DNA from: a virus
Taxonomy: Duplodnaviria; Heunggongvirae; Uroviricota; Caudoviricetes
Reading direction: 5' to 3' (one strand)
Length of the DNA stretch: 64,000 nt
Virus record (IMG/VR): IMGVR_UViG_3300010049_000009
Coordinates: 1-64,000 of that record
Shown here: piece by piece, positions 5,632 through 55,901 of the stretch
Position numbering within the stretch: position 1 is the first letter of the stretch
Layout: every line of letters begins with the position of its first letter
The notes under the pieces: generated by a model
Databases searched by the model: none
Told to the model about the DNA's origin: nothing
Seen by the model: the letters and a program-made list of their open reading frames with translations, nothing else
Translations under genes and position numbers: made by a program

Positions 5632-5706
5632 AGCGGTGTATTTCAATGGTTAGAATGACGGTCTCCAAAACCGTAGATGGGAGTTCGAGTCTCTCCACCG
5701 CTGCCA
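5632..5706 (+). tRNA. trnW: tRNA-Trp (anticodon CCA), with encoded 3' CCA
   Basis: acceptor stem AGCGGTG/CACCGCT, anticodon stem ACGGT/ACCGT, loop CTCCAAA, T-arm GGGAG-TTCGAGT-CTCTC, all folded by eye. Confidence 0.8.
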
Positions 5707-11907: not shown

Positions 11908-12627
11908 ATGAATAATATTCAACAACAATTACTAAAAGAGGTTAAGCGTGGTCAATCAGGTTACGGATTTCTATTTGAGAATGACGGATTTGTTGATCCT
12001 ACTAACCAAAAACATATGTTAAATGAAGACAGAGATAGAAGTGAATGGTATATACCATTTCCTTATATTATCCACGCCGTCTTTCAAAAAGCGGATACCC
12101 CAAACGCCAACGGTAGAATATACCCAAGACCAATATTAGAAAGAGAACTTATAAAATATCAACTAAAAATCAGTGAAAGAAGGGCTTATGGTGAAAGTGA
12201 CCACCCCGAATCAACCATTATATCCACAAAGGGTATTTCAATGAACATTATTAAATTATGGTGGGAAGGAAAAACTATTGTGGGTGATTTGGAAGTACCA
12301 CTATCACATGGATTTGTGAAGAATGGTATTTGTAGCACTCCGGGAGATATTATTGCGAATAATATTTATTATAATAGGTTGAAACTTGGTGTTTCTTCGA
12401 GAGGTGTGGGTTCCGTGGAAGCAGGAAAAAACAATATTAATGTTGTTGGAGACGATTTTGAACTTTTGTGTTGGGATTGGGTGACTGACCCTTCAACACC
12501 GGGTGCTTGGACAGCAAAAGATATGAGTGATTTGAAACCTTATATTGAAAACACAGAAATCAAAACTTGTGAAAAGAAAATATTCATCATTGAAAAAGTT
12601 GATAAAGTATTACAAATTATAAAATAA
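11908..12627 (+). CDS. T4 gp21-like prohead core protease
   Basis: GRIYPRPILERE, YGESDHPE, LWWEGKTIVGDLEV, LGVSSRGVGSV and AWTAKDMS align with recalled T4 gp21 segments (KRLYPKRILEKA, GELNHPP, MWWKGNDVYGRARV, GVSSRGLGSL, AWVTPKE). Confidence 0.6.
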   Translation: MNNIQQQLLKEVKRGQSGYGFLFENDGFVDPTNQKHMLNEDRDRSEWYIPFPYIIHAVFQKADTPNANGRIYPRPILERELIKYQLKISERRAYGESDHPESTIISTKGISMNIIKLWWEGKTIVGDLEVPLSHGFVKNGICSTPGDIIANNIYYNRLKLGVSSRGVGSVEAGKNNINVVGDDFELLCWDWVTDPSTPGAWTAKDMSDLKPYIENTEIKTCEKKIFIIEKVDKVLQIIK

Positions 12628-13796: not shown

Positions 13797-14630
13797 TTAC
13801 CTCCCCACTTGTGGTAAATTAATCAAAGGTACACCGGAACCACCACTATACATAGGGAGTTTTCCATCCCACTTTTCGATAGCGTATTGTTGAACGAGTA
13901 ACATATTAAGTGATGCTGCAACAACCCTGTTGTAGTATGCTTCGCCGTCACCCTTAATTTTCAAGGCTTCCGCTTCACCACGCGCTTTAGTTACTTCGAT
14001 TTCCGCTTGTGCTCTTGCACGAGCGACCTCATTTTCCGCCCTCATCGCTTCCTGTACCATTCGGTTTCTTGAATCAATCGCCTCTACCAAACTTGCCGGT
14101 GGTGCAATCGCAGCCGTAAATTCAACAACCTGAAAACCTTGACTACCTAACGATTGTTCGAGCATTTCTCGGACTTGTGCCTCAAACTCACCACGCTTCG
14201 CCATTAATTCATCGGATGTGAAGAGGTTCCCAACAGTTCGATAAGCGTCAAACACACAGGTTAGAATAAATCCTTGTTCGATTTCCTTTATGGGTCTACG
14301 ATATGTTAAAAACACATCAATCGCCTTATCGGGATTCAAACGGTACGCCAAGTTTGGTGTGATACGGAAAATTGCCGCATCCTTCGCATTAACGGTGATT
14401 TCACCATACGAAACTCGTTGTACGTACACCGGATACTGATGTACACTCTGTGTAAAGGGGTTAAACCACACAAAACCACGTACAGTTCCCATTACACCAC
14501 CTTGTTTCTCTTCCGAAACACTCCACTTGTGGAATTTAATACCAACCGAGGTCGAATCGACCGTGGTACAACTTTGGGCGAACATCATAATCGCCACTAA
14601 ACTCAAAATCCAAAAACTTCCTTTCTTCAT
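13797..14630 (-). CDS. SPFH/band-7 (stomatin/HflK/C-like) lipoprotein
   Basis: lipobox MFAQSC; SPFH core with a coiled-coil EAMRAENEVARARAQAEIEVTKARGEAEALKIKGDGEAYYNRV. Confidence 0.7.
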   Translation of the reverse strand: MKKGSFWILSLVAIMMFAQSCTTVDSTSVGIKFHKWSVSEEKQGGVMGTVRGFVWFNPFTQSVHQYPVYVQRVSYGEITVNAKDAAIFRITPNLAYRLNPDKAIDVFLTYRRPIKEIEQGFILTCVFDAYRTVGNLFTSDELMAKRGEFEAQVREMLEQSLGSQGFQVVEFTAAIAPPASLVEAIDSRNRMVQEAMRAENEVARARAQAEIEVTKARGEAEALKIKGDGEAYYNRVVAASLNMLLVQQYAIEKWDGKLPMYSGGSGVPLINLPQVGR

Positions 14631-14694
14631 CTGTTCTAAAAAAATTTAATGTTAAAAACTTATTTTACTTATCAAATATACATAATATATTTCA

Positions 14695-15693
14695 TTACTT
14701 AAAAACGTTACGATTTTCCCTAAAGAATTTCAATAACGTGGTTTCAGACCAACTAACCCTTTCGTCTGAACGAGAGGTTGGGGCAAACTTTTGTTCTATC
14801 GCGTCAATATACATTGTGTGAGAAAAATCATCACCTTGATAATTTTCTTCCCAATATTTCGGCGGAATCTTGTTTTCCATATCCAACTGCTCAATAGAGA
14901 GGTTGTCGAAACTGATAACATTGGTGTAAGATACAATTTTAATAATATTCCGATCCCATTCCACAATATTATTCTTAATATCCTCTGAATAAGATTTATA
15001 GTAATCTAATCCTCTACCAAACTCTTTATAACCAAGCAATAGAAACTTTCGTAATCCGAAGCGGTCTCTTAACTGTGTTATAATTTCCGGTGTGTGTAGA
15101 CCTATAATAAGGTGCGCAACTGTGTGTTCATACTTCAAAAAATACTCTTCGTCTGCTGAACACTTATCAATACCTTCTATTGGAATTGATACACCTAACC
15201 CATAAATCAATTTTTCTTCCATATAACGTTTCAATTCAACCGCATTACTTCCATGTAAGTGGTGAAAATTAACCGTCAAACTAGGGAATATCTTTTTTGT
15301 TTGACAGAATTGAAGAAGTAGTGGGAGGTCGGGATGTGATAATGGATTACCGCCGCCGACTGCCATTTCCTGTCCACCTGGTAACACATCCAAAACTTCT
15401 ATCAACGCATTTATATCAGCGTGTTTTCCGTGAAAATGTGATTTTTCATGACAAAAAGCACAGGGTTTAAAATCACCCATACCATATTTAGATGGTATGC
15501 CCACACATTGGTTTGTGATTTTTATATCCATACTGTTCGGATAGTCAAACACAACAGGTTTGGTTTCGTCAAACTCCATTATTCGTGTACCATCTTCAAA
15601 AAGTTGGACTTTTACATTACCGTTTTGGTAGTTTATTATTTCTTTCATTGTGTTTTTTAAATTAACAATCATTTCCGAATTTTCCAAAAGCAA
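14695..15693 (-). CDS. radical-SAM-like protein with a non-canonical CX14CX2C cluster motif
   Basis: C-VGIPSKYGMGDFKP-C-AF-C (exactly 14 and 2 spacing) followed by a GGGNPL glycine-rich motif. Confidence 0.4.
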   Translation of the reverse strand: MLLENSEMIVNLKNTMKEIINYQNGNVKVQLFEDGTRIMEFDETKPVVFDYPNSMDIKITNQCVGIPSKYGMGDFKPCAFCHEKSHFHGKHADINALIEVLDVLPGGQEMAVGGGNPLSHPDLPLLLQFCQTKKIFPSLTVNFHHLHGSNAVELKRYMEEKLIYGLGVSIPIEGIDKCSADEEYFLKYEHTVAHLIIGLHTPEIITQLRDRFGLRKFLLLGYKEFGRGLDYYKSYSEDIKNNIVEWDRNIIKIVSYTNVISFDNLSIEQLDMENKIPPKYWEENYQGDDFSHTMYIDAIEQKFAPTSRSDERVSWSETTLLKFFRENRNVFK

Positions 15694-17023: not shown

Positions 17024-17710
17024 ATGATGGTAAACATAAAAAAATTGTACAAGTATGGTTACTTGGAAATAGAAGGTGATAGTGAAAATATATGGTTCAC
17101 ATCGGACTTACACTTATATCACAAAAACATTATCAAACTTTGTAATAGACCATTTGCTGACGTTGAGGAAATGTCAAATACATTGGTCGAAAATTGGAAT
17201 AGTGTGGTTAAAGAAGATGATTTGGTATTCAATCTTGGGGATTTCTGTTGGTCAGAATGTTCTATCGTTTGGTCAAAACTCATAGATAAACTTAATGGTC
17301 GTCAAATTTTGATAAAAGGAAACCACGATCACCCCAAAACATTACAAAAATTATCCGATAAATATTCTCTTATTGAAGTTTGGAAACCAGGGTCTAATTT
17401 CCCAATTAAGAATTTGAATAAGTTATTTATGATAAGAGAAAGTTTAGAGGTGCGCCACAACGGGGAACGCTTTCTACTTAATCATTACCCACAAGCACAT
17501 TATGTTGGACAATATCATTCCGTTAGACAAATATTTGGGCACACCCATGAAAAATCATGTGCATATTCACCCAATCATTACAACGTTTGTGTTGAGCGAA
17601 ACCTGTATCGCCCTGTATCATTGGAAGAGGTGGGAATGTTGCTGACAATGCAGTGTCGGGATAACGAAACAAATTATTTTTTAGAAGACCTACTATATAA
17701 AGAAACATAA
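17024..17710 (+). CDS. calcineurin-like metallophosphoesterase
   Basis: FTSDLHLYH ... LGDFCW ... KGNHDHP (DxH/GD/GNHD motifs). Confidence 0.6.
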   Translation: MMVNIKKLYKYGYLEIEGDSENIWFTSDLHLYHKNIIKLCNRPFADVEEMSNTLVENWNSVVKEDDLVFNLGDFCWSECSIVWSKLIDKLNGRQILIKGNHDHPKTLQKLSDKYSLIEVWKPGSNFPIKNLNKLFMIRESLEVRHNGERFLLNHYPQAHYVGQYHSVRQIFGHTHEKSCAYSPNHYNVCVERNLYRPVSLEEVGMLLTMQCRDNETNYFLEDLLYKET

Positions 17711-18240: not shown

Positions 18241-18621
18241 ATGGTACATACAATTATAATCGGTGTTTGGATGACATTGTTATTTATAACATTGTCTGTT
18301 GTTTTCGTATATATGTTTAAGAAACCAAAACATAATATAAACGAGGTTTTTGAACAAATATTTAAGAAACAAGTTGATTTGTTAAAAAAAATTGACGAAG
18401 AAAACACAATGCAAGTAGAGGTGTTTGATAAACTTAACCATAATATTGTAGAGAATTATCGCATACTATTGCAAATACAAATAAAAGAATCTATTAAACA
18501 CAACCCCTTTGAAACAGAACATATTCTAAAATTATATAACGATTACATTGGTATTGCCAAATATCCGAACACAGTTTTAGATGATGCGGTTAATGAGTGG
18601 AGAAACCTATACGGTTATTAA
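18241..18621 (+). CDS. small membrane protein
   Basis: N-terminal TM. Confidence 0.45.
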   Translation: MVHTIIIGVWMTLLFITLSVVFVYMFKKPKHNINEVFEQIFKKQVDLLKKIDEENTMQVEVFDKLNHNIVENYRILLQIQIKESIKHNPFETEHILKLYNDYIGIAKYPNTVLDDAVNEWRNLYGY

Positions 18622-19217
18622 CAAATAAATTCCACCATACCACTATCCAAATAGAGATATGCGCCAACAATTTTTATATCACCATTTTTTTCCTTTTCAC
18701 GTAAAAAACGATATTCCCGAATTGTATTTACAGATTGTTGAACATTTGTTCGACACACCAAATCAAAGAAACCAGGATTAGACGATACGGTTTCACCACC
18801 ATAAATAATATCCGCACTTGCTCGTACCGCCGGTAGTATTGGGCGAAGTTTTCCTAACAAACCCCAATCCTTTTCCTCTGTATCAATAACACGTTTGACA
18901 GCAGCACAATTATCATGTCCCAAAACCATTACCAAATTCACGGAAGGAAAACTACAAGCAAATACCAAATCAAATAAAATTTCATTGGTAATAACATTCC
19001 CCGATGTGCGAATTGTAATAACATCACCCGCACCCAATTTAAAAATATCTTCAACCACAATACGAGAATCTATACAAGTTACTATCACCGCTTTCGGTGT
19101 TTGTTCCTTAATACTATGGGGTTTGTCGTTAACATATTCTTTGTTACGACATTTTAAAACTTCAAGTGTCGGGTGAGGCACTTCTTCTTTCTTTTTGAAT
19201 TTAAAAAAATCTTCCAT
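18618..19217 (-). CDS. beta-class carbonic anhydrase
   Basis: CIDSRIV...GDVITIRTSGNVI...VLGHDNCAAV matches the beta-CA CxDSR / HxxC zinc-ligand signatures. Confidence 0.7.
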   Translation of the reverse strand: MEDFFKFKKKEEVPHPTLEVLKCRNKEYVNDKPHSIKEQTPKAVIVTCIDSRIVVEDIFKLGAGDVITIRTSGNVITNEILFDLVFACSFPSVNLVMVLGHDNCAAVKRVIDTEEKDWGLLGKLRPILPAVRASADIIYGGETVSSNPGFFDLVCRTNVQQSVNTIREYRFLREKEKNGDIKIVGAYLYLDSGMVEFIC

Positions 19218-19224
19218 TTTGATA

Positions 19225-20049
19225 TTATTTAAGGTTTTCAGTTTCGAGTTGTAATATTTCTTTCTCCAACGATGCTGTTATTTTCATAAGTGTTTTTAAA
19301 TAAAACGTGTTTATAATCCACTTGTTTAAGTGTCGCCACCTGCGCTTATCCCAATCAGCCAATGGTGTATAAAACCCCAATAGTGTGGAACGATTATAAG
19401 CAGTAGGTGTATTAAGAAATGATTTACGAAAAGATAAAAAACTCCGCAATTCCCTAAACATAGCATGAAACACGGTGGCGCGACAAATTGTTCCACCACA
19501 ATTTTTATCACGATACAATCCCTTGAATTTTATCCAACGTTTTAAGACTTCACCCATATAATTTGCTTTGTATTTAAACTCTGCAACAATACCCCAATTG
19601 AAGAAAAACCATTTTGGTTCAATCCTAAACAAATGGTCTCTTACACCCATTTTGTATATTTCAACATTCGACTGACGGCGAATAGAATTAAACGGTGCCG
19701 GATTTTGACCAATAGCAAGATTACTCCAATCGCCAAAGAACATTTTGTTTTTACGCTCACCCCAATCACCCATAAAATAATAATCTCCGTAAGTGTCATA
19801 TTGATAATCTGCTGAAGGACAATCTGTCATTGGACAACGATACATGTCTTCTATCGAACCATTCCCATTAGGATCAGTTACATGATCTAACGACGTTTCA
19901 ACCCGTGCCTCACCAACATATTCAAGCCGCACACGAGGTCCACAAAACGCACAACGAAAATCTTCTTTCTGACCATCTATTCTATTATCACATACCCCAT
20001 AGGTTGGGGATTCATTCATACTTTCCATTTTCATATTTATTTTAAACAT
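19225..20049 (-). CDS. hypothetical Cys-rich protein (274 aa)
   Basis: ORF. Confidence 0.5.
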   Translation of the reverse strand: MFKINMKMESMNESPTYGVCDNRIDGQKEDFRCAFCGPRVRLEYVGEARVETSLDHVTDPNGNGSIEDMYRCPMTDCPSADYQYDTYGDYYFMGDWGERKNKMFFGDWSNLAIGQNPAPFNSIRRQSNVEIYKMGVRDHLFRIEPKWFFFNWGIVAEFKYKANYMGEVLKRWIKFKGLYRDKNCGGTICRATVFHAMFRELRSFLSFRKSFLNTPTAYNRSTLLGFYTPLADWDKRRWRHLNKWIINTFYLKTLMKITASLEKEILQLETENLK

Positions 20050-20167
20050 TTATATCAAATATAATATCACAAAATTATTCCGATCCTATAAAGATATTAT
20101 TCTGAATGAAATGTTTGTGTAACTAAAAATACACTATTTTCCACTGTTTCCCAATTTATTTTATTTT

Positions 20168-20184
20168 TCTATTTATAAAAAATA
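20168..20184 (+). promoter_or_regulatory. conserved upstream motif TCTATTTATAAAAAATA before the histidine kinase gene
   Basis: recurring motif family. Confidence 0.4.
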
Positions 20185-20193
20185 CAAAAAACC

Positions 20194-20958
20194 ATGAGTA
20201 TTCAAGAAGAAGAAATAAAGAAATTGAAGGAGGAAAATGAGTTGTTGAAAAAGCGTTTGGATAACGCAAACAAACTCAAATCAACCTTTCTTGCTAATAT
20301 GAGCCACGAAATTAGAACACCGTTAAACGCTATTGTGGGGTTTTCTAATTTTTTAACCGAATGTGAAGAATTAACCGAAAGTGAGCGCAACGAATTTATT
20401 AACATTATTCAACAAAATAATGATTACTTATTGAAAATCATTGACGATATTTTAGAACTCTCTAAAATTGAAAGAGATCAAGTCTTTATTAATAATGTTA
20501 AACTGAAACTAAATCAGTTTTTAGGTGGATTGATTAATGAGAATAAGAAAAAAATTAACCCCAATAGGAAAGTCGAATTAATATTAGACGATGTGGATTT
20601 TATTGAAAATTGTCTTATTGAAGTTGATGCCATAAAATTAGAGCAGATACTTAATAATCTTATTGATAATGCTATTAGATTCACATTGAGTGGATATGTG
20701 TTAGTTGGGTATAAACAAATACCGGGTTTCATTGAATTTTATGTTGAAGATAGTGGAGTTGGAATACCCAAAGAAAAATTAGAACACGTTTTTAATAGTT
20801 TTTACCAAATCAATAGTGCTATATGTCCCGATTCGGGAATGGGCGTTGGGTTATTTATTTCAAAAAACTATGTTAAAAGAATGGGTGGTGTTATGGGTGT
20901 AAGTTCAGTCGAAGGTGAAGGTAGTAGATTTCATTTTACCATACCATATCTTGTATAA
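20194..20958 (+). CDS. cytoplasmic sensor histidine kinase (HisKA + HATPase_c), no TM and no sensor domain
   Basis: H-box FLANMSHEIRTPLNAI; N box NNLIDNAIRFT; G1 VEDSGVGIP; F box FNSFYQ; G2 GMGVGLFISK; N-terminal coiled coil. Confidence 0.8.
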   Translation: MSIQEEEIKKLKEENELLKKRLDNANKLKSTFLANMSHEIRTPLNAIVGFSNFLTECEELTESERNEFINIIQQNNDYLLKIIDDILELSKIERDQVFINNVKLKLNQFLGGLINENKKKINPNRKVELILDDVDFIENCLIEVDAIKLEQILNNLIDNAIRFTLSGYVLVGYKQIPGFIEFYVEDSGVGIPKEKLEHVFNSFYQINSAICPDSGMGVGLFISKNYVKRMGGVMGVSSVEGEGSRFHFTIPYLV

Positions 20959-21034
20959 TAATTAAAACACAGATAAAAAATAAATATTTAACTATTTATT
21001 CATAAAGAATAAAAATAAATTATGATATAATGCT

Positions 21035-21526
21035 ATGAGCGATTTATTGATTAAAATGCCGTTGGTTTACGAACCATTAAGACAAAATAGGTTTCTGTTG
21101 AGGTTTCCTTCTGATCTTGGAATACAAGAATGGTGGGTAAAAGACACTGTTAGACCAACTTTGGAACTACCGTCAAAAGAAATTGAATTTATGAATACCT
21201 CAACTTGGATTACAGGAAGATACAAGTGGAAGGCAATGACTGTTAAGTTAAGAGATACTATTGGTCCTTCTACAAGTCAAGCTGTGATGGAGTGGGTACG
21301 TTTACATGCGGAATCTGTGACCGGCCGTATGGGTTACGCCGCTGGTTACAAACGTAATTGTGAATTGGAAATGTTAGACCCAACCGGTGTTGTTGTTCAA
21401 AAATGGATATTGGTGAATTGTATGTTATCAGGTGATATTAATTTCGGAAGTTTAAGTTATACATCGGAAGAAATTGCTGAAATAGATTTTTCTATACAAC
21501 CCGACTATTGTGTATTAGCATACTAA
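21035..21526 (+). CDS. T4 gp19-like tail tube protein (163 aa)
   Basis: same length as T4 gp19; collinear similarity to recalled gp19 segments (RQNRFLLRFPSDLG / RPNLFQVEISYLG; AVMEWVRLH / QKFVDWQ; IQPDYCVLAY / VTLALDYWE). Confidence 0.5.
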   Translation: MSDLLIKMPLVYEPLRQNRFLLRFPSDLGIQEWWVKDTVRPTLELPSKEIEFMNTSTWITGRYKWKAMTVKLRDTIGPSTSQAVMEWVRLHAESVTGRMGYAAGYKRNCELEMLDPTGVVVQKWILVNCMLSGDINFGSLSYTSEEIAEIDFSIQPDYCVLAY

Positions 21527-23029: not shown

Positions 23030-23374
23030 TTAGGATTTTTCTAACATTTCGATTGCAGCACCGATATTGGGTGTGATATTTAATATAGTATCAAGTTGTG
23101 ATATAAAAATCAGGCGTTCCACCGCTTCGTTCAATCCACTGAGGATAAATTTACCACCGGCGTTTTTACACAACCTGTGGGCAACAAGAATTGCACCTAA
23201 GCCGGAAGAGTCACAGTATTTGCACATTTCCAAGTTCAAAATAATGTTCTTCTCACCATTCCCTGATATTAAGACTAATTCGGATTTGAGTGTTGGTGCA
23301 ATATGTGTGTCTAATTTTTGTTGTTGTACACTGATAACGGTGTGTGTAACGTTTTGGTCAATTTTTAAGTTCAT
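23030..23374 (-). CDS. STAS-domain anti-sigma-factor antagonist (SpoIIAA/RsbV-like)
   Basis: DSSGLG phospho-serine motif and overall STAS pattern. Confidence 0.7.
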   Translation of the reverse strand: MNLKIDQNVTHTVISVQQQKLDTHIAPTLKSELVLISGNGEKNIILNLEMCKYCDSSGLGAILVAHRLCKNAGGKFILSGLNEAVERLIFISQLDTILNITPNIGAAIEMLEKS

Positions 23375-26525: not shown

Positions 26526-28442
26526 TTAATTAACTTCTTCCGCTTCCTGTGGTCCACCGGCGGTTGCTTTACTGAAATCAAAATCACCAAATGGGTTGTC
26601 CGCACCCATATTAGCAAACGGATTGCTTGGGTTTCCACCACCAGGGTTATTTGCCGCATACAATCTTGTTGAAATCGGTATCCACACCTCATCCATTTTC
26701 TTTGCTAACTCATCCACCTTTTCGTGGTTTTCGGTTTTAATAACTTCCTTCAATTCGTCAATCACCGTTTGGATTTTTATTTTTTCCTCATCGGTAATTT
26801 TATCACCCATTTCGTCAATTTGTTTTTCGGTTGAGAAAATTATGGAGTCCGCCTTATTCATAGCTAAAACCTTTTCCATTTTTTTCTTATCCGCTTCGGC
26901 GTTATCTTCTGCTTCACGTTTCATTCTTTCAACCTCTTCTGACGATAATCCTGATGAAGATTGAATGGTGATATGTTGTTCTTTGTTTGTCCCTTTATCA
27001 GTTGCTTTAACAGACATAATACCGTTGGCATCAATACTAAATGTTACCTCTATTTGTGGTGTACCGCGCCTTGCCGGTGGAATACCATCTAAATCAAATT
27101 GACCTAATAGTTTATTATCATTGAAAGAGGGGCGTTCACCTTGGGCTACGCGAATGGTTACTGCCGGTTGGTTATCAACTGCTGTGCTGAAAATTTGTGA
27201 TTTTGAAACAGGGATTGTTGTGTTCGCATCAATAAGTTTTGTGAACACACTACCCATAGTTTCGATACCTAATGAAAGTGGTGTGACATCTAAAAGTAGA
27301 ACGTCTTGTGTTTCACCACTTAACACAGACCCTTGAACTGCTGCTCCAAGGGCAACAACTTGGTCGGGATGTACACTTTTGTTTGGTTTTCTCCCAAAAA
27401 ACTTCTCAACAGCCTCTTGTACAGCGGGAATACGAGTACTACCACCAACAAGAATTACTTCGTCAATATCACTTGTGGTTATACCTGCGCTTTTCAATGC
27501 TGATTTACAAGGTTCGATTGTGCGTTTAACGATAGTTTCTATCATTTGTTCAAATTTCGCACGTGTAATCGTTTGCACGAGGTGTTTTGGTACACCGTCA
27601 ACCGGCATAATGTATGGAAGATTTATTTCTGTTTGAACTGAACTTGACAACTCAATTTTCGCCTTCTCAGCGGCTTCTTTCAGGCGTTGTAATGCCATTG
27701 GGTCTTTTTTCAAATCAATGGCGTATTCCTTATTAAATTCGTCAGCAAGATAATTTATAATGACATGGTCAATATCATCACCCCCCAACCTTGTATCGCC
27801 GTCAGTGGATTTGACTTCAAACACACCACCACCGAGTTCAAGTATTGATATATCGAATGTACCCCCACCGAAGTCAAATACAGCAATTTTCATATCGTCT
27901 TTCTTATCTAAACCAAAAGCCAATGCTGCTGCCGTAGGTTCATTAATTATACGAGCGACTTCTAATCCGGCTATTTCACCCGCTTCTTTGGTTGCTTGAC
28001 GCTGTGAATCGGAAAAATAAGCCGGTACAGTGATAACTGCTTTAACCACCTCTGTTCCAAGAAAATCTTCCGCTGTTTTCCGCATTTTTTGCAGGATTAT
28101 TGCTGAAATTTCTTGTGGGGAATATTCTTTATTTTCAATTTTAACACGAATAGTGTCATTAGTACCACTTACAAGTTCGTATGCAACTTTATCCTTTTCG
28201 TTGTTGATTGAACTATATTTTTCACCCATAAAACGCTTTATGGAATAAACCGTTTTTGTTGGATTAGTTACCGATTGGCGTTTCGCGGAATCTCCCACAA
28301 CACGCTCACCGTCTTTTATAAAACCAACAATTGAGGGGGTGGTGTCCTTCCCCTCACCGTTTGGAATAACCATTGGCTTACCACCTTCTACTACTGAAAC
28401 ACAAGAGTTACTTGTGCCTAAATCTATACCTATTATTTTCAT
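26526..28442 (-). CDS. dnaK: Hsp70 chaperone DnaK
   Basis: [19 protein letters not shown]..., DLGGGTFD, full-length 638 aa with an acidic C-terminus. Confidence 0.9.
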
Positions 28443-28459
28443 ATTAAATATTTATTTTT

Positions 28460-28927
28460 TCAATTTATATCAATTTTTCTAATTGTGGGTTGTTCGGTAG
28501 AACTCCACATTTTATCTATAACAATCTCCAAAATACCATCCACAATATGTGAAGTAGTAGTATCTAAATCACAATCTTTTGGAATGGTAAATGTTTCTTT
28601 ACCGGGTTTTGTGTTGAAATGAAAACCATTATCACGTGGTTTATACTCCACAGTTAGAGTATAATCTTGTAATGTGATTTCAATATCATTTTTTGATAAT
28701 CCTGGAACCAACAATTCAATCGAATGAGTGTGTGCATCACTCTCGATATGACAGTTTGATCTACCTATACCGTATGATACAGTATAACTTGGTGGCGCAA
28801 TTATGTCTTGCGCACGTGGGAGAATACCCCACCATGGGCTTGTATCCTCACTTGGTAAAAAATCACCCACATGAAATCTATATGGATAATTACCTGTACC
28901 TGTTCTTATGTTACAACAACTTTTCAT
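28460..28927 (-). CDS. small heat-shock protein (Hsp20/alpha-crystallin-like)
   Basis: alpha-crystallin-like core IELLVPGLSKNDIEITLQDYTLTVEYKPRD...FTIPKDCDLD...DGILEIVIDK. Confidence 0.5.
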   Translation of the reverse strand: MKSCCNIRTGTGNYPYRFHVGDFLPSEDTSPWWGILPRAQDIIAPPSYTVSYGIGRSNCHIESDAHTHSIELLVPGLSKNDIEITLQDYTLTVEYKPRDNGFHFNTKPGKETFTIPKDCDLDTTTSHIVDGILEIVIDKMWSSTEQPTIRKIDIN

Positions 28928-28993
28928 ATTATATAATTATTATTATTATTTATTTTTACATTTACCACTATTCAAAGAGTGTGCCAAAGGATT

Positions 28994-29044
28994 TTTGTCA
29001 CAAAAAAAGATGTTTTTTGTGACAAAATATGACAGATTGTCATA
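28994..29044. promoter_or_regulatory. two adjacent palindromes, TTTGTCACAAAAAA-N5-TTTTTTGTGACAAA (14-bp arms) and TATGACA-GAT-TGTCATA, upstream of the sHsp-DnaK operon and overlapping the infA stop
   Basis: perfect inverted repeats sharing a TGTCA half-site. Confidence 0.45.
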
Positions 29045-29291
29045 CTTGTCCTTCATCTACTGACACCTTTGCAGTATTGAACCGGCGTGAAATACGACCT
29101 CTTGTCAGATCGTATGGCGACATTTCTATTTCGACTTTATCACCAACTAAAATTTTAACGTAGTTTTTGCGTATTTTACCTGATATTACACACAGCACCA
29201 TGTGTTCGTTTTCCAACTCAACGCGAAAGGTGGCGTTACCCAACGCTTCTGTAACTATACCTGTTTGGATTATAAGATTCTTTTTACCCAT
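29040..29291 (-). CDS. infA: translation initiation factor IF-1 homologue
   Basis: [57 protein letters not shown] is roughly 60% identical to the recalled E. coli IF-1 ([57 protein letters not shown]). Confidence 0.85.
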
Positions 29292-29652
29292 TTTCTTTTT
29301 TTATAAATTGTTTTAAATATTTCATTTCGATATGTTTCTTAATAATATCCCCATGACATGACTTCGGCGCACAAAAACAACCAAGACATATGTTTTCACC
29401 ACGTATATACATATCATATATTTCGTCTATTTTCTCTCTAAATGTGGGGTTATTTTCATAGTTTTCAAGAAAATATTCTTGGTATTTTGCAATTGCGGTT
29501 TCTCTATCTGATACCGTGTATTGCGCTAACGTTCCTGTTTTGGTACTATATGGATTACCCAATATGTTATTTTCTCTGTTTCTACCTATGTAGAAATACA
29601 CACCATCGTTTGGGGTGTGTTTATTAATGTTTATTACTTCTATACTTCCCAC
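29284..29652 (-). CDS. hypothetical protein ([14 protein letters not shown] motif)
   Basis: ORF. Confidence 0.45.
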
Positions 29653-31947: not shown

Positions 31948-32778
31948 CTAATTTAACCTTTCTTCTCTAAATTCACAAATATCCAACAAACAAAAGTCTA
32001 TGTTATTTACCCTCGTTGTTTGTGTTGCATGAAAATGCCCATAATACCATTTTGATAATATTTTCTGATTATCTTTAATTTTATAGAAATTATTATCCAT
32101 TGTTTTACGCTCTGTATCCACATCATATTTCAATTGCATATCCACCATTATCCAACTTTGGATACCGCTCTTTGTATATGGATAAACAAATGACGGTGCA
32201 GTATGTGATGCAATAATATCAATGTTATTCGGGAATTTTTTATTGATTTCATCTATCTTTGATTCATTATATATGGGCATTTCACCTTCCCAATAATATT
32301 TTCTACCGGGTTTTTCACGTTCCCACCTCCAACGTTCAGTTCTATCAACACTCAATCCACCACCAATACATAATATATTTTTAGAAATGGTAAAGATTGG
32401 GGGTGCAAAATATAAAGAGTTGTCATCTTGTGGAAGTTCTCTTGTGTAAAATATTTCAATAACAGTGTAATCAGATACTAAATGAATGTTGGAATATGAT
32501 TTGGAATATACGCCGTCAAAATATTTTGGGTCATCGTGATTTCCTCGAACTACAACAAGGTGATTCTTTTTCTTTTTTAGTTTGCTGTTGAGTTTCTTCA
32601 ACTCCACTTTATTGTGTTCTTCGGAATGAAAACCAATACCAAAATCACCAAGTTGAATGATTACATAGTTTTCCAATTGGTATTGTACACTTGCTTTGTG
32701 TGCAAGGGTACTCCATTGTCCGTGAACATCGCCAACAAAGGTTAATCCATTGGCATCATTAAATTTTATTGTATTCAT
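31948..32778 (-). CDS. PPP-family-like Ser/Thr phosphatase / calcineurin-like metallophosphoesterase
   Basis: FVGDVHGQ ... LGDFGIG ... RGNHDD (GDxHG / GDxxxxG / GNH[DE]). Confidence 0.55.
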   Translation of the reverse strand: MNTIKFNDANGLTFVGDVHGQWSTLAHKASVQYQLENYVIIQLGDFGIGFHSEEHNKVELKKLNSKLKKKKNHLVVVRGNHDDPKYFDGVYSKSYSNIHLVSDYTVIEIFYTRELPQDDNSLYFAPPIFTISKNILCIGGGLSVDRTERWRWEREKPGRKYYWEGEMPIYNESKIDEINKKFPNNIDIIASHTAPSFVYPYTKSGIQSWIMVDMQLKYDVDTERKTMDNNFYKIKDNQKILSKWYYGHFHATQTTRVNNIDFCLLDICEFREERLN

Positions 32779-34933: not shown

Positions 34934-34986
34934 ATCATTTTTTCTATAAATATACAGTATTTTAAAATAACATTGAATTATATGTG

Positions 34987-35067
34987 AGCGGATAGTGGGA
35001 CTCGAACCCACACGCCTTTCGGCACTAGTTCCTAAGACTAGCGCGTATACCATTCCGCCATATCCGC
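34987..35067 (-). tRNA. tRNA-Leu (anticodon TAG), type II with long variable arm
   Basis: acceptor GCGGATA/TATCCGC; anticodon stem CTAGT/ACTAG, loop CTTAGGA; folded by eye. Confidence 0.7.
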
Positions 35068-35133
35068 ATATTATCACAAATATTTGCACTGTTATCATAG
35101 GTATTGATAATAGTGCAATTTTATTTGATAATG

Positions 35134-35206
35134 TATGAGTGGAGGGATTCGAACCCCCGATTTCGTGGTCCCAAACCACGCGCCATACCAACTTGACCAC
35201 ACCCAT
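35134..35206 (-). tRNA. tRNA-Pro (anticodon TGG), with an A1-U72 pair
   Basis: anticodon stem CGTGG/CCACG, loop TTTGGGA; T-arm GGGGG-TTCGAAT-CCCTC. Confidence 0.65.
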
Positions 35207-35213
35207 GTTGTTG

Positions 35214-35285
35214 ATGTTCCACCAGGACTTGAACCTGGACAAACAGATTCAAAATCTGTTGTGCTAACCATTACACAATGGAACA
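35214..35285 (-). tRNA. tRNA-Gln (anticodon TTG)
   Basis: acceptor TGTTCCA/TGGAACA (U1-A72 typical of Gln); anticodon stem ACAGA/TCTGT, loop TTTTGAA. Confidence 0.7.
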
Positions 35286-35291
35286 ATGTAG

Positions 35292-35364
35292 CTGGGATAG
35301 TAGGTCACGATCCTACGACCTGCGGATTAACAGTCCGATGCTCTACCAACTGAGCTATATCCCA
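35292..35364 (-). tRNA. tRNA-Asn (anticodon GTT)
   Basis: acceptor TGGGATA/TATCCCA; D-arm GCTC-AGTTGGTA-GAGC; anticodon loop CTGTTAA. Confidence 0.7.
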
Positions 35365-35370
35365 ATTTTG

Positions 35371-35443
35371 CGGTCGATGTGGGATTCGAACCCCTCCTCT
35401 ACCGTGACAGGGTAACGTGCTAACCATTACACTACACCGACCA
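35371..35443 (-). tRNA. tRNA-Asp (anticodon GTC); the T-stem pairs poorly
   Basis: anticodon stem TTACC/GGTAG, loop CTGTCAC (classic Asp loop); acceptor GGTCGGT/ATCGACC; only a 3-bp T-stem found by eye. Confidence 0.55.
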
Positions 35444-35448
35444 TTTTG

Positions 35449-35524
35449 GGTGAGAGAGGAGAATCGAACCCCCGACCTTCTGATCCACAATCAGACGCTC
35501 TAACCTACCTGAGCTACCCTCACC
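35449..35524 (-). tRNA. tRNA-His (anticodon GTG) with encoded G-1 opposite C73 (bacterial type)
   Basis: 5' G-GTGAGGG; anticodon stem TCTGA/TCAGA, loop TTGTGGA. Confidence 0.7.
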
Positions 35525-35532
35525 ATATATTG

Positions 35533-35605
35533 TAGTCGGTACGGGACTCGAACCCGTTTCTCCACCTTGAAAGGGTGGTGTCCTGACCAATTAGACGAAC
35601 CGACC
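35533..35605 (-). tRNA. tRNA-Glu (anticodon TTC)
   Basis: near-identical to the recalled E. coli tRNA-Glu core (TTCGTCTA..GGACACCACCCTTTCAAGGTGG); T-arm ACGGG-TTCGAGT-CCCGT. Confidence 0.7.
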
Positions 35606-35614
35606 ATATTTTTG

Positions 35615-35699
35615 TGGAAAGGGTAGGATTCGAACCTACGAAAGTCCGAAGACAGCGGAGTTACAGTCCGCCCCAATTGACCAACTATGGGACCTTTCC
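35615..35699 (-). tRNA. tRNA-Tyr (anticodon GTA), type II (bacterial style)
   Basis: acceptor GGAAAGG/CCTTTCC; anticodon stem GCGGA/TCCGC, loop CTGTAAC; long variable arm. Confidence 0.7.
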
Positions 35700-35745
35700 A
35701 AACATTTTATCCAAAATAATATTCACATATTATTCCGATCTTATG

Positions 35746-35818
<73 letters not shown>

Positions 35819-36101: not shown

Positions 36102-38081
36102 TTAATTAACCAAAATTTTTTCACTATTTTCTAAATATTCATCAATTCGTACTATTAAACGTTCAAATTCTTCATTTATTACAGGAGAACCTGTTAAAGT
36201 TGGTTTATTTTGTACTACAATATTTTCTGTGATAATTTTTTCTTTGTTATGTTTTTTATTTTCCATTGGTGCTGCTTCTGCTGCCCCAGCCTCTGCGCCA
36301 CCCACATCGGGTGCACCACCTTCGGCAGGTGCTTCGCCACCACCTTCTTCTGCGCCGCCGCCCATATCATCCATACCCATATCGCCACCTGGTGCACCTC
36401 CACCGCCGCCACCGGCAGCCGCTTCTGCTTGTCCTATTTCAGTAGCACCATAATTATATTCTGCATTTGCTTCACCATATAATGTATCAACTCTATCAAA
36501 AAGACCTGTTTTCTTAATAATTTGTTGTGTTAATACTAATTCGGTTGCCAATGCTTTTTCAAGTCGAAGGTCTTCCAATATCTGATTAATTTCGCTTTCA
36601 GGGAATTTCATAATTTCCCTTAACGCTTTTCTCCACGAATATACTGCTAATCCACCACCCGGATCTGAAAGAGCATCTTTACAAACAAGAATCTTCTTCT
36701 GCATTTCTTCAATACGTTGAATTTCTGCTTGTGTTGAAGGATTGTTCATTGTTATTGTAAAGTTATTCAGTTCGTCTGTAAAACCTAACAAATAAAGATG
36801 TATGATAGCAATTTTATTTAGTTCAAGAATAACACATTGTTGAATACGTGTAATTATTTTGGCAAATCTTACGTCAGTCATTGATAGTGTTCTACCTTCG
36901 GCTGGTGATGCTTCAAAATTTAAAAATACCTTTGGAATACCCAAGGCGGTGAGCATTTGCAAATGAAGATATTCTAAAATATCTTTAAATTTTTCAAATG
37001 CTGAACTACCACTTAACGCCTCGATTTTACTTGCGTCATTGTTACCTCTAACCGGGATAAAATAATCGTCTAAGGGTGACATTACGTTTTTAGATAAGTC
37101 AATATGACCTGTTTGTGGGTCAATTCGGGAAGTTCTTTTAAATCTGTTTGCTATTTCTTGTACGTATGGTTCAATGTCAGCATCGTCAATTAATCCAACG
37201 TCTATTTTGTATATTAATCTATCGTATGCTCTCTCCATCATATGTATTAACATATGATCTTCCGCCATCATTAATCTTCGCCATTGTTGTCTTGCACCAT
37301 TAATATATGAACAACCATAGGGGGCGGCAATCATATCATTCATTAGTCTGAAATGTCCCACTTGCCAACTATGAAATGTTTGTGGTGCACCTGCGCCAAT
37401 ATATTGAAAATGTGGTTGAAGTTGTGATACGTCATTGTTGGATACACTACCAGCGTTTTGTGGCATAACACCGTAGGGGTGTAAACTTTGAAATCTTCTC
37501 ATTTCGACCACAGGTACGGAGTGCCACGCCAATATACCGTTTTTAGATTGAATGTTTAACAGTTTATATTCGTTACCATATTTTACCATAGTACGGACTA
37601 GGGGTAATAGTTCCAAATGTATTTGAAGTCTATTAACGAAAAGGTCTTCTAAAATAAACTTAATTCTATCTGATTTTGAGGTGATATTAATTAGTGAACC
37701 GTCAGGTCCTAAAGTACATGTTTCTGATGCTACCAAATTTAAAGCCTGATATATTTCAGGTCTTTGGCACATATTTTCAATATCACGATACATTAAGTCA
37801 ACATAACCCATTGACTGTAAATCACGCATATTAGTACGTGCTTGGGTATGTATCCACGTTGAACTTAACCATTTGTCTTGTTTACCTTGAAGTAGTGCCG
37901 CATCATATTCCGCTTTATTCTTTGTTTTAAGAATAATATCGTTATTGTAATCATAGGTGCTCGGGTGAGATGACTGAACAGTGGTGTTGTACTGCCCTTT
38001 ATCCCACCCTGTTAAAGTTTTTATCAGTGCGCTATATATACTTATAGGTTTTTCTTGTTTCTTATCCATTATCGAATACAT
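36102..38081 (-). CDS. candidate portal (T4 gp20-like) or other large head protein, with a Gly/acidic C-terminal tail
   Basis: 659 aa, no NTP-binding motif, located beside putative head/scaffold genes; the family could not be verified by eye. Confidence 0.3.
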   Translation of the reverse strand: MYSIMDKKQEKPISIYSALIKTLTGWDKGQYNTTVQSSHPSTYDYNNDIILKTKNKAEYDAALLQGKQDKWLSSTWIHTQARTNMRDLQSMGYVDLMYRDIENMCQRPEIYQALNLVASETCTLGPDGSLINITSKSDRIKFILEDLFVNRLQIHLELLPLVRTMVKYGNEYKLLNIQSKNGILAWHSVPVVEMRRFQSLHPYGVMPQNAGSVSNNDVSQLQPHFQYIGAGAPQTFHSWQVGHFRLMNDMIAAPYGCSYINGARQQWRRLMMAEDHMLIHMMERAYDRLIYKIDVGLIDDADIEPYVQEIANRFKRTSRIDPQTGHIDLSKNVMSPLDDYFIPVRGNNDASKIEALSGSSAFEKFKDILEYLHLQMLTALGIPKVFLNFEASPAEGRTLSMTDVRFAKIITRIQQCVILELNKIAIIHLYLLGFTDELNNFTITMNNPSTQAEIQRIEEMQKKILVCKDALSDPGGGLAVYSWRKALREIMKFPESEINQILEDLRLEKALATELVLTQQIIKKTGLFDRVDTLYGEANAEYNYGATEIGQAEAAAGGGGGGAPGGDMGMDDMGGGAEEGGGEAPAEGGAPDVGGAEAGAAEAAPMENKKHNKEKIITENIVVQNKPTLTGSPVINEEFERLIVRIDEYLENSEKILVN

Positions 38082-43792: not shown

Positions 43793-46700
43793 TTAATTTA
43801 TGTTTGGAACATTTCGGACTCTTGCAACCCTATTAATTGCTGTTTTATCACCAGGTTCTTCATCACATTGGTCGCCTGTACCGGCAGATATTTGCATAAC
43901 ACCAATACCACACATTATCGGTTTTCCGAAATCTATATCAATAATAGTGTTAGTTGGAATTAGGTTTTCCAAATACGGCATAATGTTATTTATGAAAAAA
44001 TATTCTTCTGAACCGTCAATGGAATCATATCTGAATGTTATATTTTTACAATTTACAATTCTATAAAAATCTATTGCGCTTGCCAACCTATCATCAATAT
44101 GTCGGGTGTTTGCTGTTCTATCCTCTCGAAGAATGGGTTTACATTCCCTGAATCTAACATCATCTATGTATGTTCTGTAAATAGAATATTCTTTATTTAT
44201 CATTAATTTATCTTCCCAATGTTTTGTTGAAACATTGTCTATAACAACCATATCAACCGCCGTTTCATATACATTTTTTGTGGGTACAAACCCCGTATCT
44301 ATTTTTCTTCCATACCCCTCATTTCTATAAACCGGCCAACAACCTTTATTGTCTATATTACCTACTAATCTAAAACCAACATTTTCCAATTGGTAATATT
44401 GGGGGTTGTTCCATATACATTCAGGGGAGTTGCTTAAAGTGTAATTAAACAAACCGTTTAAATTTCTAACATCACCCTTCTTGTTACCTTCATTAAGTTG
44501 TGGTGTAATAGAATCACCGTTTACATCATTAATTCTATATCCAATATGTTGTAAATAACTGTTTCCGTAATCATATCCCAATGTACCGCCTGTATGGGGA
44601 TTGTTACCTTCATTTGTTGTGGTTATTTGAAAATATGCTTGAACATTGATTGTAACCGACACGCCCGATGTTTCTCCTGTTATTGTGTATAACCCCTCTG
44701 TGTCGGCGTGGGTTAAGTTTGCCCACCCTTCTTTATTCATTGCGTTGTGTGCATCTACCAATACCCAATAATTGGAAAAATTAGATTTATTCGCCGTTGG
44801 TTTCCACTCGTCATCATTTCTTACAAATACAAGTGTACCTTCTTCATTACCTAATCTTATGATTAAGTTTTTTAAATCTTCTATTGTTTCAACCAATCTT
44901 AATTCTGCTTGGGTGTCTTGATACCAACCACCAAATTGTTGATAATACAAACGCTCTGTGTTACCATGAAAGAATGGTACAGCGTCATACCGCCTAACAT
45001 ATCCTATTCCATTACATTGAAAACAAACCGCTCTATCAGTAACAATATATCCTTTACCATCACATTTTTTACAAATAACACTCATATCACCTTTGAAATA
45101 TTTTGTCATTGGTAATATGTGTTGTTCTTCTTGATCCCCCTGTTCTTTATCACTTATGTTATAATCTTCACCATTTTCAGTGTATGGGGTTTTTATGTTT
45201 AATGATATAATATTTTTAACAGGATAGAAATATACTTGGGCAGCTCCACGTGGAACGTAAGTGTTATTATTCACCCCACTAACCCCAACAAATTCTTGAC
45301 CACTTTGGTAATTAACACCATTATATTCTACATAATCAGCGTTTGTTGCATTGCGGGCATACACATCGTATATGTAACCAGGTCTTATACTACCTGTTGG
45401 TGCAAGCACTTCATCGGGTATCATATTATCACTTTCCGGTCCACTTGTACCATAACGACTTCCTGTTGCAACATATACGACCTCATTTAATCCCCACTTT
45501 TTTCGATCTACACCAAACAGGTTCATTAACATTTCAACACCGTGTTTTGTTCCCTTCCAAGAAGCAATGTGTGATGAATTGAGTAATAATCTTCGATAAA
45601 ATTCATTCTCAATATCAGTCGCATTATATTTCTGCTGCCATCCACCATATAATTGGTCGGTTTGTATGTCTATGTTATCAAAATTAACAACCGATATGGG
45701 TTTCCACCCGGCAATATCAACCTCATTTTTCAGAAGAGCATCGGGGTAATTATCTAATTGATTATATGTTAAATTATTGATAACTTCAATACCATGAATA
45801 TATTTTTTCAGTTCGTCATAACTTCTACCATATAATCTTAATATCTTATTAAGATATGTTCCACCTACAATATGTGCTTGTGCCAACGCTTCGTCTTCAA
45901 TTCTATTCAAAGACCAATCAAGATTTTTAATACTATCGTGTGTAAGCATACGATAAATGTTATCACATTTCATAGTATCCATATATTCGGCAGACTCTAA
46001 TAATGTGTTTATCATTCTTTGATAACTCACGGATTTCAAATCAATGTTCCACCCATCCTCTGTATCTAATGTAAAACTTTCATTGGCGTACATTCCGGTA
46101 TATGTTCCGTCATTATCTTTGGAAGGTGTGTAAAAAGTTGAAGTGTATTTTGGAACAGTGTTTCGATTTAATATTACTGTCTGAAAATCCGATAGATTAT
46201 TAAAAAATTCAGTAACATATTTTTCTTTTGGTTTAATGTGAAACCCTAATATACCCTCAGCGTTATTTTGTATCCCTGTTATATCAGCAACATAATTGAT
46301 TAGTTCGCAAGGATTGTGTTCGTCATCGTAGTTGAATGATATTGTTATTGTGAAAAAATCAGCATTAGTTCTCAAACGACAAGTGTTTGGAACAACAGGT
46401 GTGTTTAGTGTGGATAAAACTCTAATTGTAATTGTATCCAATAATCGCATTGGTGGGTGATAATCTTTTTTGAATATTTCTTCCAATTCCTCTGAATCAA
46501 AATCCTCATCCGTTGTTACAATTAGACTGTTATTATCAAGTGTGAATATTCCATTCGATGGTTCATATTCTTCGTGAAGAAAACCATCATCAAAAACATT
46601 TGTCCGACCAACATATCCAACAAATCCTGTTCTTTTTATATAAACGTATCTGTAATCCGTATCTACTCGCTGTATATCCCTCTTACATTCAGTTAAACGA

Positions 46701-47605: not shown

Positions 47606-47610
47606 AATTT

Positions 47611-48531: not shown

Positions 48532-48578
48532 TTTAATTTAATTCTTTATTATAAATAATTGTTTTTCTATTTTTAGTA

Positions 48579-52960: not shown

Positions 52961-52966
52961 TTCTAA

Positions 52967-55858: not shown

Positions 55859-55901
55859 GTTTGTTCAAATTTTTACAACTATAAATACCAAATAAATCAA
55901 A

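Follow-up and report, generated by a model that had tools for sequence, protein, structure and literature searches.

A divergent beta-class carbonic anhydrase gene in a variable cassette of a huge tailed-phage genome

The carbonic anhydrase gene and its product

The subject of this study is a gene on the minus strand of a 64,000-nucleotide stretch of viral DNA (Caudoviricetes; positions 1 to 64,000 of the IMG/VR record IMGVR_UViG_3300010049_000009), the whole of which is referred to here as the window. Its product, a protein of 199 amino acids named CA in the following, is almost certainly a beta-class carbonic anhydrase (beta-CA). The gene is the second of a minus-strand pair, following the gene of a zinc-ribbon protein of 274 amino acids (ORF274), and together with a histidine kinase gene (HK) these form a small cassette between two conserved genes, which encode a tail-tube-like protein and a protein of 126 amino acids (ORF126). 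The coordinates of these and further features are collected in Table 1.

The first-pass annotation of the window had proposed a beta-CA on the basis of the motifs CIDSR, GD.ITIRTSGN and GHDNCAAV in a product of this length, and all three motifs are present. The profile search named there as a check gave a strong match over the full length of the Pfam profile PF00484 (Pro_CA; positions 1-156 of 156), with 98.7 bits and an E-value of 5.3e-28 at a gathering cut-off of 25.7 bits. The proposed Cys/His/Cys zinc ligands are likewise in place, as Cys48, His101 and Cys104 and the Asp-Arg dyad align with the corresponding residues of 119 cellular homologues and of Escherichia coli Can. A sequence search of the PDB with CA returned Rv3588c of Mycobacterium tuberculosis (1YM3/2A5V) as the top match (E 7e-16, residues 37-194), followed by 26 more sequences of the beta-CA family, one of which is a carbonyl sulfide (COS) hydrolase. 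At the DNA level, a pattern with the spacing C-x-D-S-R, 17 residues, R, 3 residues, N, 25 residues, G-H-x-x-C matched the window once, as opposed to no match in 100 shuffled sequences. The AlphaFold2 model of the CA monomer, built from an alignment of 18 sequences, reached a pLDDT of 88 and a pTM of 0.85, and a Foldseek search with it found Rv3588c (2A5V/1YM3) at TM scores of 0.74-0.76. All 50 PDB matches listed by Foldseek have the beta-CA fold, including one COS hydrolase.

The N-terminus of CA, MEDFFKFKKKEEV, contains no hydrophobic segment, its N-terminal hydrophobicity being 0.04, whereas 88 of 120 scanned members of the family reach at least 1.8, often together with a lipobox cysteine. 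A stop codon lies 7 nt upstream of the ATG, so that a longer alternative N-terminus does not exist. Because both a hydrophobic segment and a longer N-terminus are lacking, CA should be located in the cytoplasm.

Table 1. Coordinates of the features discussed; positions refer to the window unless another contig is named.
Feature	Coordinates	Strand	Remarks
Beta-class carbonic anhydrase (CA) gene	18618..19217	minus	ATG start; 199 aa; without signal peptide
Gln39 codon, conserved active-site glutamine	19101..19103	minus	Alignments
CIDSR, residues 48-52	19062..19076	minus	Zinc ligand Cys48 and Asp50-Arg52 dyad; alignments, pattern match
GDVITIRTSGN, residues 64-74	18996..19028	minus	Strand and loop at the substrate pocket, with conserved Arg70 and Asn74
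GHDNCAAV, residues 100-107	18897..18920	minus	Zinc ligands His101 and Cys104; alignments, pattern match
Variable accessory cassette (HK, ORF274, CA)	18622..21034		Between two conserved flanking genes
ORF274, zinc-ribbon protein	19225..20049	minus	274 aa; CxxC...Cx4C; ends 7 nt before the CA start
Divergent intergenic region	20050..20193		144 bp between the ORF274-CA unit and HK; presumed promoter region
Histidine kinase (HK)	20194..20958	plus	254 aa; HisKA and HATPase_c (Pfam E 2e-19 and 6e-24)
Tail-tube-like protein, conserved flank	21035..21526	plus	phrog_4542, E 7.7e-21
ORF126, conserved flank	18241..18621	plus	126 aa; convergent with CA; homologue in L084
Prohead protease	11908-12627		Peptidase_S77 on the record; phrog_207, E 7e-33
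T4-type portal	36102-38081		PF07230, E 1.8e-55; phrog_213
ORF matching virion structural PHROGs	55902-58412	minus	PHROG search
Array of nine tRNA genes	34986-35818	minus	Leu, Pro, Gln, Asn, Asp, His, Glu, Tyr, Thr; adjoins the portal
tRNA-Trp, separate	5632-5706	plus	
Accessory genes	13797-15693	minus	See text
Accessory genes	17024-17710	plus	See text
Accessory genes	31948-32778	minus	See text
Stand-alone STAS protein	23030-23374	minus	Anti-sigma-factor-antagonist type
Chaperone cluster	26526-29652	minus	DnaK/Hsp70, Hsp20, DUF4326 protein
Six consecutive large ORFs	43793-58412	minus	1270, 306, 675, 784, 963 and 836 aa
Giant ORF	58499 to past 64000	plus	More than 1,833 aa; cut by the right edge of the window
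Beta-CA of a second phage lineage, L171	4530-5171		Position in L171
Beta-CA of a second phage lineage, L173	11356-12009		Position in L173
Beta-CA of a second phage lineage, L181	9461-10123		Position in L181

Conservation and deviations of the active site

The active site was compared in three alignments, namely A1 with CA and 17 homologues, a second one with CA and the 119 cellular homologues, and A2, which includes E. coli Can. Cys48, His101, Cys104, Asp50, Arg52 and Gln39 are invariant in A1, in the alignment of 120 sequences (Gln39 in at least 95% of the 119) and in A2, and within CIDSR the column of Ser51 is invariant as well. Among the 119 cellular homologues, 63 columns are at least 95% conserved, and CA retains 45 of these (71%) at an overall identity of about 38%, which fits a continued constraint on a working active site. 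Judging from the residues retained, it is probable that CA is catalytically active.

At conserved columns CA deviates by P54V, F67I, V68T, A72S, G105A and Y188L and at a few surface positions. Since Ile67, Ser72 and Ala105 sit at pocket-lining positions, the pocket appears to be somewhat remodelled. At the position of Val54, the alignment with the PDB sequence places an alanine in Rv3588c, which is an active enzyme. The pocket numbering used here reportedly goes back to the structure of the pea beta-CA described by Kimber and Pai in 2000. By motif position, we take Gln39 to correspond to pea Gln151, and Ile67, Ser72 and Ala105 to Phe179, Val184 and Gly224. Compared with the pea pocket set of Gln151, Phe179, Val184, Tyr205 and Gly224, Gln39 and Phe86 fit, and Ile67, Ser72 and Ala105 deviate.

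The triad Trp39/Arg64/Tyr181 of E. coli Can, which we take to be the non-catalytic bicarbonate pocket of type II beta-CAs, aligns in A2 with Ile45/Arg70/Leu188 of the phage protein. The score of CA against NF007756, the equivalog model of Can, is 21.9 bits at a cut-off of 251. Since Ile45 and Leu188 stand in place of Trp39 and Tyr181 of Can, CA does not resemble the bicarbonate-gated enzymes of type II.

Divergence, origin and residence of the gene

In a collection of 5.8 billion proteins, the sole close match to CA is CA itself, and the next best matches show 36-43% identity. In a neighbour-joining tree of 120 sequences it forms the longest terminal branch, with a length of 0.39 as opposed to a median of 0.056. 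The nearest NCBIfam model is NF011765 (PRK15219), which CA matches with 129.2 bits (E 1.6e-37) at model positions 72-244, below the membership threshold of 221 bits. Because of the long branch and of this below-cut-off match, which begins only at position 72 of the model, the acquisition is either old or the gene fast-evolving, and the export region at the N-terminus has been lost. The three nearest homologues that could be placed lie in ordinary cellular neighbourhoods. One of them, on L080, has a BatA-BatD operon upstream and genes for SulP and Phe-tRNA synthetase downstream, and one close cellular homologue adjoins a SulP+STAS gene. A link of CA to a SulP/STAS bicarbonate transporter was considered and rejected, as the pairing occurs in only 8 of 80 cellular loci, SulP is absent from the window, and the stand-alone STAS protein encoded there belongs to the anti-sigma-factor-antagonist type.

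The CA gene has a GC content of 35.5% (window genes 34.4 +/- 3.2) and of 24% at third codon positions, and its synonymous-codon likelihood ranks 26th among 56 window genes. Three contigs of different sample origin, one from an ENA assembly and two from Logan assemblies, have this gene neighbourhood in common, and the identical protein is encoded on contigs of up to 367,985 bp. CA is a resident phage gene without a chimeric join, since its composition and codon usage are typical of the window and its neighbourhood recurs in independent assemblies.

Genomic context

The first-pass reading of the window as a phage genome is borne out by the portal (PF07230), the prohead protease, the tail-tube-like gene (phrog_4542) and ten tRNA genes. 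An Rfam scan of the window detected nothing besides tRNAs, and most of its open reading frames (ORFs) are without any family assignment. The tail-tube-like gene lies 1.8 kb from CA on one side and the prohead protease 6 kb away on the other; the portal follows at 17 kb on the tail-tube side. CA therefore has viral genes on both sides, the location by which auxiliary metabolic genes are judged.

Within the cassette, the stop codons of CA and ORF126 overlap by 4 nt, and ORF274 and CA are probably co-transcribed. A scan for sigma-70 promoters and terminators around CA gave counts not above those of shuffled sequence. Two copies of the Bacteroidota -7 motif TAnnTTTG are located just upstream of ORF274, a motif that is not enriched in the window (91 observed versus 105 expected). 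The HK consists of a coiled coil, a dimerisation and histidine phosphotransfer (DHp) domain and a catalytic domain, without a sensor or transmembrane domain, and its NCBIfam matches cover the kinase core only. For ORF274, an exhaustive phmmer search found 114 relatives and a word-indexed search returned the query alone. CPxC, Cx4C and APFGSxxRKxNVEIYK are conserved in the family, for which searches of Pfam, PHROG and PDB gave no assignment; the single-sequence AlphaFold2 model was unusable (pLDDT 35). No conserved pairing of ORF274 with CA came to light. The one viral locus with a member of the ORF274 family has no CA, and a pattern search of the species genome collection did not detect a relative.

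Further genes of the window were noted. A stand-alone STAS protein of the anti-sigma-factor-antagonist type is encoded 2 kb from the HK; neither a response regulator nor an anti-sigma kinase was seen in the window. The chaperone cluster comprises a full-length DnaK/Hsp70 of 638 amino acids, an Hsp20 and a DUF4326 protein, and an IF1-like (eIF-1a) gene follows just past it on the record. The accessory genes at three further positions (Table 1) encode a Band-7/HflK-like protein, a protein matching phrog_16999 ('Fe-S oxidoreductase') and two calcineurin-like metallophosphoesterases. The six consecutive large ORFs have no Pfam match, and only the last of them matches PHROGs (virion-structural, Hc2, baseplate); they are presumably very divergent tail or fibre proteins. 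The giant ORF at the right end contains an N-terminal InPase domain (PF18823, E 6e-50) and a WG repeat near the cut, and from these domains it resembles a polyvalent phage protein. Only small unassigned ORFs and one GmrSD_N match were seen in the 10 kb that adjoin the window on its left.

Related phages

A closer relative is a phage on a contig of 135 kb (L084; JGI 3300010162, Ga0131853_10000083), whose DnaK is 75%, whose tail-tube-like protein is 78.5% and whose ORF126 homologue is 65% identical to that of the window. Between the same flanks, two unrelated ORFs of 217 and 43 amino acids replace HK, ORF274 and CA. This contig also encodes a dihydroorotate dehydrogenase (PF01180) and a phosphoribosyltransferase (L084 1-206 and 1676-2722), neither of which was seen in the window. 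A more distant relative is the 360-kb IMG/VR record UViG_3300009784_000001 (L005), with identities of 54% for the portal (tblastn), 53% for the protease and 67% for DnaK. Protease and portal are separated by about 5 kb in this record (L005 10001-17450), as opposed to 23.5 kb in the window, where the CA region lies between them. The head module of the window is split by an accessory block with CA, HK, STAS, DnaK, Hsp20 and tRNAs; in the 360-kb record, DnaK is located about 190 kb from the portal.

The tail-tube-like protein has at least 582 relatives in metagenomes. In 80 metagenome loci with such a homologue, including flanks of 6 kb, no homologue of CA, HK or ORF274 was present. Its absence from the loci of relatives, together with the other ORFs that take its place in L084, marks CA as lineage-specific cargo of a variable region within the block of head and tail genes. 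The cassette is an example of huge phages swapping accessory genes between conserved structural genes.

Host and habitat

The phage DnaK shares 66-69% identity with cellular DnaKs, and all those with a name belong to Bacteroidota; one of them is encoded on a chromosome with the gliding-motility genes GldB and GldC. Closer copies with 75-80% identity are found on metagenome contigs, L084 included. In a collection with one genome per species, Bacteroidota account for about 65 of the 80 cellular CAs nearest to that of the phage, and the rest come mainly from Planctomycetota and Verrucomicrobiota. No Shine-Dalgarno-like sequence precedes the CA start, which fits a host from the Bacteroidota. On these sequence comparisons, the host is most likely a member of this phylum.

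The best homologue of the tail-tube-like protein comes from the metagenome Ga0099364 (Ga0099364_10063587), which a record title ties to the metagenome-assembled genome (MAG) Th196P3bin126. The nearest cellular CAs include those of Dysgonomonas termitidis and Candidatus Azobacteroides and of the MAGs Cu122P1 and Emb289P1. These names, Th196P3, Cu122P1 and Emb289P1 among them, presumably point to termite guts. This suggests a gut-type habitat for the lineage, possibly the termite gut, as seen from the relatives and not from the window's own samples.

Occurrence of beta-CAs among viruses

The first-pass annotation had described carbonic anhydrases as rare in viruses. In tblastn searches of 50,697 GenBank phage records, CA matched six records and E. 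coli Can only two Salmonella sequences, with 89% identity. The six records are one Salmonella chromosome contig, four large contigs named 'Acinetobacter phage MD-2021a', in which cynT or ychM is annotated, and MT835693.1, an unverified 'Bacteriophage sp.' record that is bacterial by its genes for citrate lyase, a CitMHS citrate transporter, CobW and two-component systems. The other seven of the eight GenBank records look like cellular DNA, to judge by how they are named, sized and annotated; one is a 'Salmonella phage' record of 1.6 kb with 89% identity to E. coli can. Hence, no genuine phage beta-CA was found among the eight GenBank phage records matched by CA or Can. BFVD contains three beta-CA folds, all from giant eukaryotic viruses. 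PHROGs has no annotated carbonic anhydrase family, and the only match there is a weak one to phrog_26042, whose function is unassigned.

When the motif pattern was applied to 2.9 million IMG/VR contigs, it selected 15 contigs, and all 15 encode real beta-CAs. The genomic context was checked for a minority of them. Four of the identifiers are, as we take it, of the type given to sequenced genomes and not to metagenomes, and on one of these four contigs the gene lies at the very end. Scans of IMG/VR with 8-residue words of CA and ORF274 gave no match. Three contigs from different metagenomes (L171, L173 and L181), with GC contents of 0.30-0.33, have a common gene order and encode a signal-less beta-CA of about 215 amino acids. 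In L173, the one whose array was scanned, the genes on the same strand include a T4-type large terminase a few kb from the CA gene, an ERCC4 nuclease and a DUF5856 protein. The CAs of these three contigs are about 24% identical to that of the window, and the other window genes have no match in the 15 loci except for a weak kinase-domain match in one of them (L175). Because of this low identity and the absence of other common genes, the two lineages acquired their CAs independently. A further contig of 78.7 kb and low GC content (L174; UViG_3300025413_001414) encodes, at 1044-1679, a beta-CA with a clear signal peptide that adjoins an HNH_3 endonuclease; this may be a phage gene or host DNA.

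Two preprints report nine CA-encoding viral operational taxonomic units (vOTUs) in the virome of the freshwater sponge Metania and a CA in the temperate Nitrosospira phage roc1, and discuss a likely influence of these CAs on the carbon metabolism or pH of the host (bioRxiv 10.64898/2026.01.21.700432, 10.64898/2026.05.02.722434). No literature linking carbonic anhydrases with jumbo phages was found, and the accessible part of the jug-phage paper does not mention the marker genes looked for. The statement on rarity holds with a qualification. It is supported by the absence of a genuine case from the GenBank phage matches and by the restriction to giant viruses in BFVD, and it is qualified by the 15 IMG/VR contigs, one real phage lineage among them, and by the two preprints. 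Phage beta-CAs are rare, recurrent and uncharacterised.

Possible role of CA

Carbonic anhydrases catalyse the reversible reaction CO2 + H2O <-> HCO3- + H+. Cellular CO2 diffuses off faster than it is hydrated spontaneously, and bicarbonate is the substrate of carbamoyl-phosphate synthetase, N5-carboxyaminoimidazole ribonucleotide (N5-CAIR) synthetase and biotin carboxylases. E. coli without Can reportedly does not grow in air, as uncatalysed hydration is said to remain below the bicarbonate demand (Merlin and co-workers, J Bacteriol, 2003). Taken as a whole, the explanation we favour, with only a little more confidence than doubt, is that CA is an active cytoplasmic beta-CA, encoded by an accessory gene of a T4-like-headed Bacteroidota phage of about 368 kb, and supplies bicarbonate. 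For the last part by itself, that the supply of bicarbonate for biosynthesis is the role under selection, our assessment is more tentative and falls somewhat short of an even chance. The enzyme would speed up the interconversion of CO2 and bicarbonate inside the infected cell and would thereby keep bicarbonate-consuming steps from becoming limiting while a genome of about 368 kb is copied many times. Candidate sinks would be carbamoyl-phosphate for pyrimidines, N5-CAIR for purines, and the carboxylation of acetyl-CoA and of pyruvate or phosphoenolpyruvate (PEP). In this way the phage would secure the bicarbonate step as host gene expression declines, just as it also brings its own DnaK, Hsp20 and tRNAs. 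The signal-less CA of L171, L173 and L181 is consistent with a role in bicarbonate supply, and the dihydroorotate dehydrogenase and phosphoribosyltransferase of L084 are consistent with one in nucleotide synthesis.

Several points weigh against this explanation. The substitutions F67I, A72S and G105A fall on pocket-lining columns that are at least 95% conserved, Tyr188 and Pro54 are replaced too, and with such a pocket the activity of CA could be reduced or changed. CA was not found in the portal, DnaK and tail-tube-like loci of the relatives, and it is dispensable for the lineage, because it is absent from every relative sampled. Moreover, no bicarbonate-consuming enzyme (carboxylase) was found in the 74 kb read, made up of the window and the 10 kb that adjoin it on the left.

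Among the alternatives, the one that survives best, albeit as an unlikely one, is that CA is active and has been selected for the CO2 or pH side of its reaction, either by delivering CO2 to PEP carboxykinase (PEPCK) in the fumarate/succinate energy pathway of anaerobic Bacteroidota or by buffering the cytoplasmic pH in a carbonate-rich or alkaline habitat. The reversibility of the catalysis would allow this, many relatives of the tail-tube-like protein are found on gut and rumen metagenome contigs, and the gut-type, possibly termite-gut habitats suggested by the relatives of the lineage would suit it. However, the window holds nothing that points to PEPCK or pH homeostasis, the need for a CA is lower in high-CO2 guts, and the habitat cue stems from relatives rather than from the window samples.

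It is improbable that CA is passenger cargo, i.e., a captured host gene in a hypervariable cassette with little or no benefit for the phage. The different genes that L084 holds between the tail-tube-like gene and ORF126 would agree with such a passenger, as would the lack of CA from the 80 tail-tube-like loci and from the portal and DnaK loci of relatives. Yet all catalytic residues and 71% of the highly conserved columns have been kept despite a branch length of 0.39 and an identity of at most about 43%, whereas at such a divergence one would expect a useless gene to have its ligands or reading frame destroyed, and the codon usage of CA is fully phage-like.

Slightly less probable still is a neofunctionalised beta-CA fold that acts on COS or carbon disulfide (CS2) or serves as a non-catalytic or regulatory protein. 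This would account for F67I, A72S, G105A and Y188L and for the extreme divergence, a COS hydrolase with the beta-CA fold does exist (3VQJ among the matches), and the HK in the same cassette is without a sensor. Nevertheless, CA scores 61 bits against Rv3588c and 25 bits against the COS hydrolase, the catalytic set for CO2 hydration is intact, and the substitutions are conservative in size and polarity. Because of the extreme divergence and of the three substitutions at near-invariant pocket positions (F67I, A72S, G105A), one may also imagine that the fold has been retuned for another small substrate, or as a generator of a CO2/bicarbonate signal for the cassette HK, with which it shares the presumed divergent promoter region; we rate this long shot no higher. 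Finally, mislabelled cellular DNA is common among the 'phage' records with CA matches, but host DNA misassembled onto a phage, or a bacterial region, can here be practically dismissed, as phage genes lie within 3 kb on either side, three contigs of different sample origin show the identical arrangement, the gene matches the window in composition and codon usage, and most neighbours are without a family assignment, as is usual in huge phages.

We retain the bicarbonate-supplying cytoplasmic enzyme as the working explanation. Neither the enzyme family nor the concept of phage auxiliary metabolic genes is new, and virome surveys have listed CA genes before. In the literature searched, no characterised phage CA was found, and the CA of the window offers an unambiguous huge-phage context, in which the gene has clearly been kept for long. 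At least two unrelated phage lineages encode a cytoplasmic beta-CA. This makes it possible to test the hypothesis that the equilibration of inorganic carbon can limit phage production, as it does the growth of CA-deficient bacteria in air.

Comparison with known systems

CA matches the COS hydrolase 3VQJ with 25 bits and an E-value of 9.4e-5, in contrast to 61 bits and 7e-16 for Rv3588c. With E. coli Can and HICA of Haemophilus influenzae it has the ligands, the dyad and the fold in common, but its identity to Can is 23%, and of the three residues that form the non-catalytic bicarbonate pocket only one is kept. The beta-CAs of Harvfovirus and Pandoravirus in BFVD have the same fold and are likewise encoded in viral genomes; their identity is only 16-19%, and they belong to viruses of eukaryotes that are unrelated to tailed phages. 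As in the Metania vOTUs and in roc1, the CA gene resides in a viral or phage genome, but the cases reported there comprise CAs of the alpha, beta and gamma classes, some of them in proviruses or temperate phages, and the passages on them describe no enzyme assay.

The CAs of L171, L173 and L181 (UViG_3300023184_000352, 3300032266_001681 and 3300028569_000415) resemble that of the window in being signal-less beta-CAs with all catalytic motifs on low-GC phage contigs. They differ from it in their canonical pocket residues (Phe, Ala, Gly). Rv3588c (CanB) shares the CxDxR/HxxC spacing, the C-terminal strands and the fold. In the structural alignment, however, the identity is 26-28%, and Phe, Gly and Tyr of Rv3588c are replaced by Ile67, Ala105 and Leu188 in the phage protein.

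The closest family is NF011765, with members in Bacteroidota, Verrucomicrobiota and Planctomycetota. A signal peptide or lipobox, present in most of these, is missing from the phage CA, whose N-terminal arm is also shortened by a deletion of about 11 residues, but at 36-43% identity it shares with them all catalytic residues and most of the invariant columns. CA is thus a new and very divergent example of a phage auxiliary metabolic gene from a known enzyme family.

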